Shown piece by piece: positions 972 through 5,962 of a DNA stretch of 5,962 nucleotides. The notes below the pieces were generated by a model. That model did not search any database, had not been told where the DNA came from, and saw only the letters and a list, made by a program, of their open reading frames with translations. Made by a program: the position numbers and the translations under genes. The number at the start of each line of letters is the position of its first letter. Positions within the stretch are counted from its first letter, which is position 1. Source of the stretch: a virus (lineage: Duplodnaviria > Heunggongvirae > Uroviricota > Caudoviricetes); IMG/VR virus record IMGVR_UViG_2579778952_000007, positions 1 through 5,962 of that record; one strand, 5' to 3'.

Positions 972-1147
972 GACTGTGGGTGCTTGAGACTATCTGTCTC
1001 AGGCATGAACACCAAAAGGCAGATAGAGAAAAGCCCCAGTTAACATTACGCGTCCGGCAAGACGCTTAACATTAATCTGAGGCCATATCTATGCTCTACA
1101 CACGTAGGTTAGCCTCTTACGTGCCGAAAGGCAAGGAGAAGCAGGCT

Positions 1148-1303
1148 ATGAAGCAGCAAAAGGCGATGCTAATCGCCCTGATCGTCATCTGTTTAACCGT
1201 CATAGTGACGGCACTGGTAACGAGGAAAGACCTCTGCGAGGTACGAATCCGAACCGGCCAGACGGAGGTCGCTGTCTTCACAGCTTACGAACCTGAGGAG
1301 TAA
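1148..1303 (+). CDS. hokD: Hok/Gef family type I toxin, 51 aa, HokD(RelF)-like
   Basis: Translation MKQQKAMLIALIVICLTVIVTALVTRKDLCEVRIRTGQTEVAVFTAYEPEE has the Hok/Gef architecture: single N-terminal transmembrane helix, conserved LCE motif and periplasmic tail. It matches my recollection of E. coli HokD. AAGGAG at 1133-1138 lies 9 nt upstream of ATG 1148. The ORF track extends the frame to an in-frame ATG at 1091 (70 aa), which has its own GAGG. Confidence 0.88.
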   Translation: MKQQKAMLIALIVICLTVIVTALVTRKDLCEVRIRTGQTEVAVFTAYEPEE

Positions 1304-4286: not shown

Positions 4287-4315
4287 TTGATTTTTCCCGA
4301 ATCTGTGGTAAATTT
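4287..4315 (+). promoter_or_regulatory. Candidate PR'-like late promoter: TTGATT, 16-bp spacer, TGgTAAATT
   Basis: -35 TTGATT at 4287-4292 and an extended -10, TG at 4306-4307 plus TAAATT at 4309-4314, immediately downstream of the Q stop. The terminator about 65 nt further on would give a short 6S-like leader RNA. Position-based inference only. Confidence 0.3.
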
Positions 4316-4361
4316 GCTCTAACGATGGGCGTTTTATGCCTGACGTTAGAAGGATTTTTAC

Positions 4362-4386
4362 AGCCCGCCATCGAGCGGGTTTTTTA
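4362..4386 (+). terminator. Rho-independent terminator (tR'-like) downstream of Q
   Basis: Stem CCCGC (4364-4368) / GCGGG (4375-4379) with a 6-nt loop, then T-run 4380-4385 (TTTTTT). Confidence 0.65.
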
Positions 4387-4520
4387 TATCTGGAAAGCGG
4401 TGCATAACGTTAAACGTGATGGCGATTGCGCAATGAGTTTCTCCTTCTCTGAAGTCTCTTGACTGCATGGAATCTCCTTTGTTATGTAAGGTGAGTTGAT
4501 GTTTTAAAATTGTTAGAGAG

Positions 4521-5240
4521 ATGGGTATGGATGACAGCACTCTGCTGAGGAACTCTTCACTTTTTATTGCTTATATGGGCTGTCTTGGATGGGGAAGCGC
4601 TTATTTCTATGGATGGGGGACTTCCTTTTATTATGGCTTTCCATGGTGGATCGTCGGGGCTGGCGTTGATGATGTGGCCCGAAGTTTGTTTTATGCTGTG
4701 AGCGTTATCGTTATATTCCTTACTGGATGGGGAGTAGGTATTGTTTTCTTTTTAGGCATAAAACAAAAAAACAATATACAGAATTTGAGTTTTATCAGAC
4801 TTTTTCTGGCAATATTGCTGCTTTTTATTCCGCCTGTTCTGGAGTTTTCGGTAATTCATCAGCACGTTGAGCCAGATGTGCTGTTTTTTTGTGTTATTGC
4901 TGCCTTTACAATTACGCTTTTTGTCAGGTCAGGAAGAAGACTTATTTCAGTAAAATGTTTTTCGGAAGTGTCTTTTATTCGCCATCACCGAATTGAGTTT
5001 ATTATGGCTGGATTCATGATTTATTTCTGGACATTCTCTCTTATTGCCGGTTGGTATAAACCTCAGTTTAAGAGGGAATATCAGATGATCCACTATGAGA
5101 ATACTTGGTATTACGTTCTTGCACGCTATGATGATCGTCTGGTTTTATCGAAATCGTACAGTAATGGGAGTTCTGCATTCGTTATACTTAATAGCGGGCA
5201 GATTGATGACTTTGAAATTAATGTAGTCAGAGTTCGTTAA
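4521..5240 (+). CDS. AT-rich multi-pass integral membrane protein of unknown function, 239 aa (moron-like cargo; alternative start 4527)
   Basis: Uninterrupted frame ATG 4521 to TAA 5238-5240, with a second in-frame ATG at 4527 lying 6 nt after GAGAG (4516-4520). About five hydrophobic helices (for example SLFYAVSVIVIFLTGWGVGIVFFLGI and FIRLFLAILLLFIPPVLEFSVI) plus a roughly 55-aa hydrophilic C-terminal tail. Composition is markedly more AT-rich than the flanking Q and tRNA genes. Candidate own promoter: TTGACT at 4459-4464 with a weak -10 near 4483-4488. Confidence 0.7.
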   Translation: MGMDDSTLLRNSSLFIAYMGCLGWGSAYFYGWGTSFYYGFPWWIVGAGVDDVARSLFYAVSVIVIFLTGWGVGIVFFLGIKQKNNIQNLSFIRLFLAILLLFIPPVLEFSVIHQHVEPDVLFFCVIAAFTITLFVRSGRRLISVKCFSEVSFIRHHRIEFIMAGFMIYFWTFSLIAGWYKPQFKREYQMIHYENTWYYVLARYDDRLVLSKSYSNGSSAFVILNSGQIDDFEINVVRVR

Positions 5241-5324
5241 TATTGCCTGAGTAACTTTCTGTTGACCGCTCAGATTCTTTTATCATGTGTAGGCCAATAT
5301 GCAGGATTTAATCAGGGTAGGGTA

Positions 5325-5353
5325 TTGCAGAGCTAAACTGGCATAAGTATTAT
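5325..5353 (+). promoter_or_regulatory. Candidate sigma70 promoter for the tRNA cluster: TTGCAG, 17-bp spacer, TATTAT
   Basis: -35 TTGCAG at 5325-5330 and -10 TATTAT at 5348-5353. The predicted start falls about 7 nt before the first tRNA at 5363. Confidence 0.45.
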
Positions 5354-5362
5354 TCCGCATAT

Positions 5363-5438
5363 GGCCCTTTAGCTCAGTGGTGAGAGCGAGCGACTCATAA
5401 TCGCCAGGTCGCTGGTTCAAATCCAGCAAGGGCCACCA
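5363..5438 (+). tRNA. ileZ: tRNA-Ile2 (anticodon CAT, ileX/ileZ-like lysidine tRNA); tRNA-Met not excluded
   Basis: 76 nt with full cloverleaf: acceptor GGCCCTT / AAGGGCC, D-arm TAGCTCAGTGGTGAGAGC, anticodon loop CTCATAA (CAT at 5396-5398), T-arm GGTTCAAATCC, discriminator A and encoded CCA. Closely resembles E. coli ileX as I recall it. Confidence 0.85.
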
Positions 5439-5445
5439 TCACATA

Positions 5446-5522
5446 CCGCCATTAGCTCATCGGCAGAGAGCGCCTGCTTTCGAAACTGGCTGTGTGAGGC
5501 TCGGGTCCCCGATGGCAATCCA
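5446..5522 (+). tRNA. Degenerate tRNA-like element, possibly a tRNA-Arg(TCG)-like pseudogene
   Basis: 77 nt foldable as a cloverleaf: intact D-arm GCTC / GAGC with 9-nt loop, anticodon loop TTTCGAA (TCG at 5480-5482), and a 3' end reading disc-T plus CCA (5519-5522). But acceptor pairs 1-72 and 2-71 are mismatched, the anticodon stem has 2 mismatches, the T-stem has 1, and the T-loop CTCGGGT departs from TTCRANT. Confidence 0.35.
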
Positions 5523-5535
5523 TTATCTGCATTAT

Positions 5536-5612
5536 GCGTTGTTAGCTCAGCCGGACAGAGCAATTGCCTTCTAAGCAATCGGTCACTGGTTCGAATCCAG
5601 TACAACGCGCCA
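5536..5612 (+). tRNA. argN: tRNA-Arg (anticodon TCT, argU/argN-like; reads AGA/AGG)
   Basis: 77 nt: acceptor GCGTTGT / ACAACGC, D-arm TAGCTCAGCCGGACAGAGC, anticodon stem ATTGC / GCAAT with loop CTTCTAA (TCT), T-arm GGTTCGAATCC, discriminator G and encoded CCA (5610-5612). Confidence 0.85.
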
Positions 5613-5624
5613 CGCTTATTTTTC

Positions 5625-5649
5625 CAGGCTCGCTTCGGCGGGCCTTTTT
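5625..5649 (+). terminator. Rho-independent terminator after the tRNA cluster
   Basis: Stem GGCTCGC (5627-5633) / GCGGGCC (5638-5644) with one G-U pair and a TTCG loop, followed by TTTTT (5645-5649). Confidence 0.6.
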
Positions 5650-5787
5650 CATATCCGCGCCACGCCCGGCGCACATCAAAAAACCACAGAGCCTTTCAGG
5701 GATGAGCTTACGGGATGGTCAGTGTGACTTTCTCTGTGGGCTGGTCAGCCCCGGGCGCAGGCTCACCCACTAAAAGGAAAAGTCACG

Positions 5788-5962
5788 ATGTTTGGTATTT
5801 TCAAAAAGAAAACCCGCAAGGCCATTACCGAAGTGAAGAAGATGGAGAACCGTGACGCAGTGGAGGCGACCGTCTGGGGCGCGTACTCCATTGCATACGC
5901 TGACGGCACCTGTGACGCGAAAGAAATCGCGGTACTGGAAAAAACCATTGCAGCACTTCCTG
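5788..5962 (+). CDS. 5' end of a cargo gene of unknown function, partial (runs off the window)
   Basis: ATG 5788 preceded by AAGGA (5774-5778) at 9-nt spacing; the frame stays open to the window end (58 codons). Translation begins MFGIFKKKTRKAITEVKKMENRDAVEATVWGAYSIAYADGTCDAKEIAVLEKTIAAL. It occupies the position directly after the tRNAs that stx genes occupy in Stx phages, but it is not a Shiga-toxin A subunit (no signal peptide, different sequence). Confidence 0.55.
   Translation, partial: MFGIFKKKTRKAITEVKKMENRDAVEATVWGAYSIAYADGTCDAKEIAVLEKTIAALP

Follow-up and report, generated by a model that had tools for sequence, protein, structure and literature searches.

Features of the locus

The stretch of DNA analysed here, which we refer to throughout as the window, comprises 5,962 nt of a tailed-phage record in IMG/VR (IMGVR_UViG_2579778952_000007). 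It differs from a prophage of E. coli E400634 by four mismatches in 5962 nt, and the 663 nt around the open reading frame (ORF) at its right-hand end (5300-5962) are 100% identical to the E400634 chromosome. The features from the antiterminator gene to the end of the window are collected in Table 1.

Table 1. Positions of the features between the antiterminator gene and the right-hand end of the window
Feature	Position	Strand	Evidence and remarks
Antiterminator Q gene, 273 aa	3460..4281	+	Pfam PF03589 Antiterm, 169 bits; PGAP 'antitermination protein'; late region starts there
Putative PR' and tR'-like terminator	4287..4387	+	Promoter TTGATT-16 nt-TAAATT, 4287-4314; stem 4362-4381 and T-run
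tRNA-Ile2, anticodon CAT (ileZ/ileX type)	5363..5438	+	ARAGORN; Rfam tRNA, 72.5 bits; PGAP tRNA-Ile
Decayed argN-like tRNA-Arg(TCG) pseudogene	~5446..5522	+	Alignment with intact copies; between two intact tRNAs
tRNA-Arg, anticodon TCT (argO type)	5536..5612	+	ARAGORN; Rfam, 70.1 bits
Intrinsic terminator	5626..5650	+	Hairpin 5626-5645 and T-run; left edge of the tciAB cassette, junction with the tRNA block
tciA-specific conserved 5' leader, 138 nt	5651..5787	+	Between terminator and ATG
tciA, 5' part (58 codons of 141)	5788..5962	+	TerB-family protein; stop codon would end at window-equivalent 6213

A first-pass annotation of this DNA had described a scaffold of Q, terminator, tRNA-Ile (CAT), tRNA-Arg (TCT) and terminator, and by coordinates on the + strand that description is accurate, although it left out two features, a 239-aa ORF and the argN-like pseudogene. 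The PR' late promoter was read by eye and is likely on its sequence; the promoter scan passed over it because it matches at eight of 12 positions. For the tRNA with anticodon CAT, ARAGORN and PGAP disagree (Met and Ile, respectively), and its homologue in records of Stx phages is named ileZ. The argN-like copy has a broken acceptor stem (GGCGG to GGCAA) and many further substitutions and is called by neither ARAGORN nor Rfam; several related loci also have no callable argN-like copy.

The 239-aa ORF (4521-5240, +), located after the Q terminator and ahead of the tRNAs, is predicted to encode a membrane protein. Its GC content is 37-40%, versus about 55% for tciA, and it is rich in rare codons (ATA, 5 of 23 Ile codons; AGA/AGG, 7 of 13 Arg codons). 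The product belongs to PHROG 1521 (unknown function) and has no Pfam match and a weak match to AbiC (E 0.0038). Farther to the left is a hok/sok-type toxin-antitoxin locus at 978-1303 (+), consisting of a match to the Rfam sok family (978-1153, 116 bits) and a HokD-like CDS (1148-1303), and right after hok there is a sub-threshold match to the isrK family of prophage sRNAs (1312-1393, +; 25 bits against a gathering threshold of 50, E 0.022).

The tciA-tciB pair and the slot it occupies

The ORF that follows the leader begins with an ATG at 5788-5790 and is without a stop codon through the 58 codons and 1 nt that remain of the window. The good ribosome-binding site and the lysine-rich N-terminus ascribed to it earlier are both present: the Shine-Dalgarno sequence AAGGA occupies 5774-5778, separated from the ATG by a spacer of 9 nt, and the N-terminus of the protein, MFGIFKKKTRKAITEVKK, has seven Lys and one Arg in 18 residues. 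In E. coli E400634 the full ORF has 141 codons and carries the RefSeq label 'tellurite resistance TerB family protein', and its homologues number in the hundreds. Because the frame continues in this way and has so many relatives, we regard it as a real gene rather than a chance frame.

What does the gene encode? TciA matches Pfam TerB (PF05099) with 32.6 bits, above the cut-off of 24.4, and among the matches listed its homologues have either a PF05099 match or no Pfam match at all. PHROG 632 covers residues 1-141 of TciA end to end (E 2.4e-64), and the TciA of phage P1 is 86% identical to it over the full length. A profile of the TciA family aligns query residues 14-135 with residues 20-144 of the solved TerB chain 2JXU (E 1.9e-6), and the AlphaFold model of a 95%-identical homologue (mean pLDDT 87) has six helices and a disordered basic N-terminus, that is, the all-helical, TerB-like fold as modelled for that homologue. 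In a set of 39 representatives with 29-67% identity to the query, D39, G40, E46, G117 and E122 are the sole invariant or nearly invariant residues. They fall in two acidic DG-x(4-5)-E motifs, D39-G40...E46 and D116-G117...E122, which align with the motifs of 2JXU. Anantharaman and colleagues are said to have proposed, in 2012, that such acidic motifs of TerB proteins bind a cation.

From the Pfam, PHROG 632, P1 TciA, 2JXU, model and motif results taken together it follows that the TerB-like or DjlA-N-like fold guessed at in the first-pass annotation was the right one. The same annotation had spoken of an unknown cargo gene, a description that does not stand: by homology the window ORF is tciA, the lambdoid-prophage copy of P1 tciA, with a predicted single-domain TerB-family product of 141 aa, and tciA is annotated already in RefSeq and in phage records and is very common, which makes it an ordinary find. 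The two outcomes that had been named beforehand as speaking against a cargo gene did not occur: the frame is uninterrupted, and the product is neither a lysis nor a structural protein. Since the locus is a familiar and widely annotated phage gene pair, little changes with its identification. Both TciA and TciB are named from homology alone, and the searchable literature yielded no experiment on either protein, the tellurite resistance of a phage TciA included.

Comparison with better-known TerB-domain proteins shows how far the likeness goes. The TerB of the terZABCDE operon (Klebsiella TerB, 2JXU) has the same Pfam family, the same class of helical fold and the same two DG...E motifs as TciA, and the profile match between them spans almost all of the protein, but the two sequences are distant, with similarity detected by profile only, and the membrane partner of TciA would be the 50-aa TciB rather than TerC. 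In DjlA, a membrane-anchored co-chaperone, a membrane helix and a TerB-like domain at the inner membrane are found in one chain, while here they would be split over TciB and TciA; this likeness is one of analogy, as TciA has no J domain and its match to the NCBIfam DjlA model is insignificant (E 0.098; 12 bits against a cut-off of 162).

The partner gene begins just past the window end, where in the E. coli E400634 locus the GTG start of tciB overlaps the tciA stop by 4 nt. TciB is a 50-aa peptide with two hydrophobic helices that matches Pfam DUF3927 (54 bits) and PHROG 1470 ('TciB-like'); PHROGs files both PHROG 632 and PHROG 1470 under host takeover. We compared 101 tciA loci drawn from IMG/VR and GTDB genomes; in 100 of them the gene directly 3' of tciA encodes a TciB homologue, and the two are also adjacent in SP-076, a virulent N4-like phage of Salmonella, and in Caitlin, a jumbo phage. 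In E. coli E400634 tciB is followed by a pair of terminator-like hairpins and then by two holin genes, an M15 endolysin gene, an HNH endonuclease gene and the terminase genes; the gap between tciB and the first holin gene, which contains the hairpins, measures 88 nt. In most lambdoid loci a same-strand holin gene starts about 240 nt past the end of tciA, at about +660 when counted from the start of tciA. Over the 101 loci, tciAB is found 3' of three unrelated Q families and 5' of varied lysis cassettes, again on the same strand. tciC is absent here, and the only TciC match in the 101 loci is that of a P1-like locus. One contig appears to encode a natural TciA-TciB fusion, composed of P1 TciA and TciB joined through an apparent frameshift near the stop, which we discounted. 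The N4-like Vibrio phage PhiImVa-1 has TerB-TerC-TerB in a row, and thus TerC in place of TciB.

Is this the slot that stxAB occupies in Stx-converting phages? The first-pass annotation had proposed as much, and the comparison bears it out: over the tRNA block (5363-5661) the identity to Stx2 phages in which ileZ-argN-argO are annotated is 92%, and in E. coli FORC_043 the order is Q, methylase, Ile/Arg/Arg tRNAs, TerB, DUF3927, a NanS-like gene and holin. The record of phage JLK-2012 already annotates Q, tRNAs, tciA, tciB, yjhS, S, R and Rz. Thus tciA sits between Q with the ileZ/argN/argO tRNAs (argN being decayed here) and the lysis genes, as does stxAB, and both are expected to need Q antitermination for their expression. 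The proteins themselves are unrelated and TciA is no toxin. None of the 96 phage records that encode a TciA relative is named as Stx-converting. The tRNA block itself recurs in well over 150 Stx-converting records, so it seems that one slot is filled either by tciAB or by stx.

The pair is widespread. We searched 5426 complete E. coli genomes with a 745-nt unit made up of terminator, leader, tciA and tciB. At least 80% of the unit was covered in 165 genomes, and some match to it, for the window allele, was present in 428 (about 8%). On plasmids there were 171 matching places, and the plasmids sampled measure about 77-124 kb, which is in keeping with P1-like phage-plasmids. A second tciA allele, whose protein is 43% identical, was found in 1110 genomes, or about 20% of the complete E. 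coli genomes, O157:H7 strains included, with up to eight matching places per genome. A gene pair that shares the slot of the Shiga toxin genes and is carried by about a fifth of complete E. coli genomes would, therefore, affect many pathogenic strains through any role that it had in induction, lysis or the membrane.

A few occurrences outside E. coli deserve caution. The Actinobacillus phage vB_Apl-pPE4 (PP818812.1) has 96.5% DNA identity over 337 nt that run from the terminator through the leader into the start of tciA. The TciA protein of this phage is 97% identical, and its gene is followed by a tciB-like ORF, two holins and an endolysin, in the order of the E. coli prophage. Actinobacillus pleuropneumoniae as the host of this phage looks doubtful. 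Copies of tciA whose products are 87-94% identical to the E. coli protein also turned up in GTDB assemblies of a Bacillota MAG (L089), Pseudomonas lundensis (L093) and Kocuria sabuli (L109). The contigs of L089 and L109 are only 2.7 kb and 0.7 kb long, respectively, and that of L093 is long but has the match close to its end; all three probably stem from contamination or mis-binning.

The 5' leader of tciA

The sole new lead to come out of this locus is the conserved leader between the terminator and the tciA start, which may mask the ribosome-binding site. In comparisons with loci that carry the divergent tciA allele, identity is 71-82% in the leader but drops to 54-57% in the coding sequence past codon 15. 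Downstream of a 23-nt core motif in the leader TciA starts 80-83 nt later at 72 of the 73 IMG/VR sites with enough downstream sequence, and the two alleles of tciA are about equally represented behind this motif; leader variants and tciA alleles have recombined. The leader of P1 tciA is unrelated to the lambdoid one.

RNAalifold folds the leader into a small hairpin (5657-5661 with 5668-5672) and a long hairpin, in which GGGGUGAGC pairs with GCUCACCC (5699-5707 with 5761-5768). At the base of the long hairpin CCUUU (5692-5696) can pair with AAAGG (5773-5777) of the Shine-Dalgarno region. A competing helix can form between CCACAGAG (5684-5691) and CUCUGUGG (5732-5739), with compensatory changes in two single sequences. 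In the test of this structure 96.5% of cells pair, and most measures were unmatched by any shuffle. Among 76 distinct leaders, two-sided changes affect three pairs in many sequences: A-U to G-C beside the anti-Shine-Dalgarno segment, U-A to A-U and C-G to U-A. Covariation tests of the two leader structures gave high pairing with few compensatory changes and did not tell the nested hairpin from the alternative helix; the variation is low, and the covariation concerns few pairs and probably few evolutionary events. The fold of the single leader sequence is no more stable than those of shuffled controls (z = -0.91). Rfam 15, searched with the entire window and also with just the leader (E up to 10), gave matches only to tRNAs and sok and, far below threshold, partial ones to terminator-like families.

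How might this conservation be explained? One tentative answer, drawn from the folding model, is that the leader is an undescribed cis-regulatory RNA in which the hairpin that pairs with the Shine-Dalgarno sequence and the competing helix gate the translation of tciA in response to temperature, an ion or a trans-acting factor, and that TciAB is, by extension, a regulated, membrane-acting lytic module; we hold this to be possible, with the balance of probability against it. A live alternative is that the leader is conserved as a recombination linker between modules. The leader offers a concrete, testable handle on the control of tciA. Two further candidates were discarded. A leader peptide from the ATG at 5715 was rejected because that start is not conserved, the variants being ATA, ACG, ATT and ATC. 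The Pas sRNAs came into consideration through a 2026 preprint that lists TerB near PasA/PasC, but those sRNAs are located between sialic-acid esterase and holin genes, and they are not relevant here because the esterase-to-holin region is absent from the window.

Proposed role of the pair and its alternatives

What, then, might tciAB do for a phage? Our reading, which we consider probable, is that the pair is a dispensable, late, Q-dependent lytic module at the inner membrane, gated by its leader, and is neither a tellurite-resistance determinant nor a toxin. Q-modified RNA polymerase that reads through the terminators would be the sole source of tciAB transcription, during lytic growth, so that expression would follow induction. 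TciA would be a cytoplasmic helical bundle with two acidic, putatively cation-binding motifs and a basic, flexible N-terminus, and its site of action would be the inner membrane, where TciB would be its partner in much the way that TerC is linked with TerB. Together the two would adjust the membrane or envelope physiology of the infected cell; they might stabilise the membrane until programmed lysis, or guard it against pore-forming colicins or superinfecting phage. Pairing of the leader with the ribosome-binding site would probably limit or gate the translation of tciA.

Phage P1, in which tciA is likewise followed directly by tciB and has tRNA genes nearby, lends itself to comparison. There the genes form tciA-tciB-tciC, located in the C1-controlled ban region downstream of C1-operated ban promoters according to the notes in the P1 GenBank record, whereas in the window tciA belongs to the Q-to-lysis late region of a lambdoid prophage. 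The three P1 genes, whose function is likewise named by homology only, are transcribed in lytic P1vir infection, and CRISPRi showed that tciA, tciB and tciC are all non-essential. The position near the ban promoters, the transcription in P1vir, the occurrence of the pair in virulent phages and the non-essentiality are all consistent with a role in lytic growth. A preprint on defence systems cites evidence for membrane association of TerB; by analogy, this association and the TerB-TerC-TerB arrangement of the Vibrio phage fit a TerB-like cytoplasmic domain that has a membrane partner, which here would be TciB.

Could the pair defend the cell that carries it? In that case TciAB would serve anti-phage defence or superinfection exclusion by monitoring the membrane, like the ter Phi phenotype or the Shango and Bunzi systems. 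In favour of this, both of these systems contain TerB domains and are proposed to survey the membrane, and TciB is a membrane peptide. Prophage accessory loci, moreover, often carry exclusion genes. However, no PADLOC model matches TciA (E up to 1) or TciB (E up to 0.01), and the ATPase and helicase genes that partner Shango and Bunzi are missing from the tciAB locus. The late, Q-dependent expression that we infer would leave the lysogen unprotected, and tciAB is carried by virulent phages as well, although exclusion during lytic growth is possible. We think a defence role unlikely.

We give about the same weight, also a low one, to the idea that TciB and TciA regulate the timing of lysis, as an antiholin or as a modulator of the holins encoded downstream. 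The nearby holin gene on the same strand in most lambdoid loci favours it, as do the size and topology of TciB, which are those of small holin and antiholin proteins, and the host-takeover category that PHROGs assigns to both genes. Yet at least three different cassettes follow the pair (Phage_holin_8 with a 3TM holin and an M15 peptidase; the S/R type; GH108), and in P1, SP-076 and Caitlin the pair is found away from the lysis genes. The two terminator-like hairpins between tciB and the holin gene also argue against such a role.

Lysogenic conversion, in which tciA would be expressed in the lysogen and make its host resistant to tellurite, oxidative stress or colicins, seems to us less likely again. 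It draws on the membership of TciA in the TerB family, on the presence of stx in the same slot in Stx phages and on the ter cluster of plasmid R478, for which tellurite resistance, phage inhibition and colicin resistance have been reported (as cited in PMC7371120). Against it, no TerC, TerD, TerE or TerZ genes are neighbours of tciA, here or in the 101 loci; its neighbours are instead tRNAs, DUF3927, holins and endolysin, and the same pattern recurs across those loci. The authors of the PMBT3 study hold that a lone terB without the other genes that are needed would not confer resistance. Nor did tciA prove to have the promoter of its own that would be expected of a moron: a scan for consensus sites found no sigma-70-like site in 5646-5787 or elsewhere in the cassette, a terminator is directly upstream and terminator-like hairpins flank the cassette. 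Because the scan covers sigma-70 consensus sites only, a weak or non-canonical promoter in the leader may exist. In P1 the pair is 3' of repressor-controlled promoters, and it is present in strictly virulent phages too, a distribution that sits badly with the Stx-like payload of the first-pass annotation, understood as cargo by which the lysogen is altered. We think it unlikely that tciA is a payload for virulence or tellurite resistance. Its 'tellurite resistance' label in the databases probably misleads, as the gene stands alone with a 50-aa membrane peptide in a late operon and also occurs in virulent phages.

That tciA is tied to the adjacent tRNAs as decoders of rare ATA, AGA and AGG codons of its own, for which the enrichment that the first-pass annotation wished to see would have spoken, is scarcely credible, even with tRNA genes upstream of tciA in the window, P1, JLK-2012 and Erwinia phage Caitlin, because tciA has none of these codons (ATA, 0 of 10 Ile; AGA/AGG, 0 of 6 Arg) and neither has tciB. 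The codons that match the adjacent tRNAs belong to the 239-aa ORF, rather than to tciA. In roughly half of the 101 loci tRNA genes are present upstream of tciA, always on the same strand, while the others have none within 5 kb, and the sets differ (CAT/TCG/TCT; Thr/Gly; CAT/Lys/Thr/Gly/Val). Homology to Stx2 phages is limited to 5363-5661, and homology to other tciAB loci starts at the terminator (5626/5627); the terminator is therefore the seam between two separate modules, one of tRNAs and the other of tciAB. tRNA genes nevertheless adjoin tciA-tciB in unrelated phages, a recurrence that codon usage does not account for: Caitlin has Trp and Cys tRNA genes there, and P1 has Asn and Thr upstream and Ile2 downstream of the pair.
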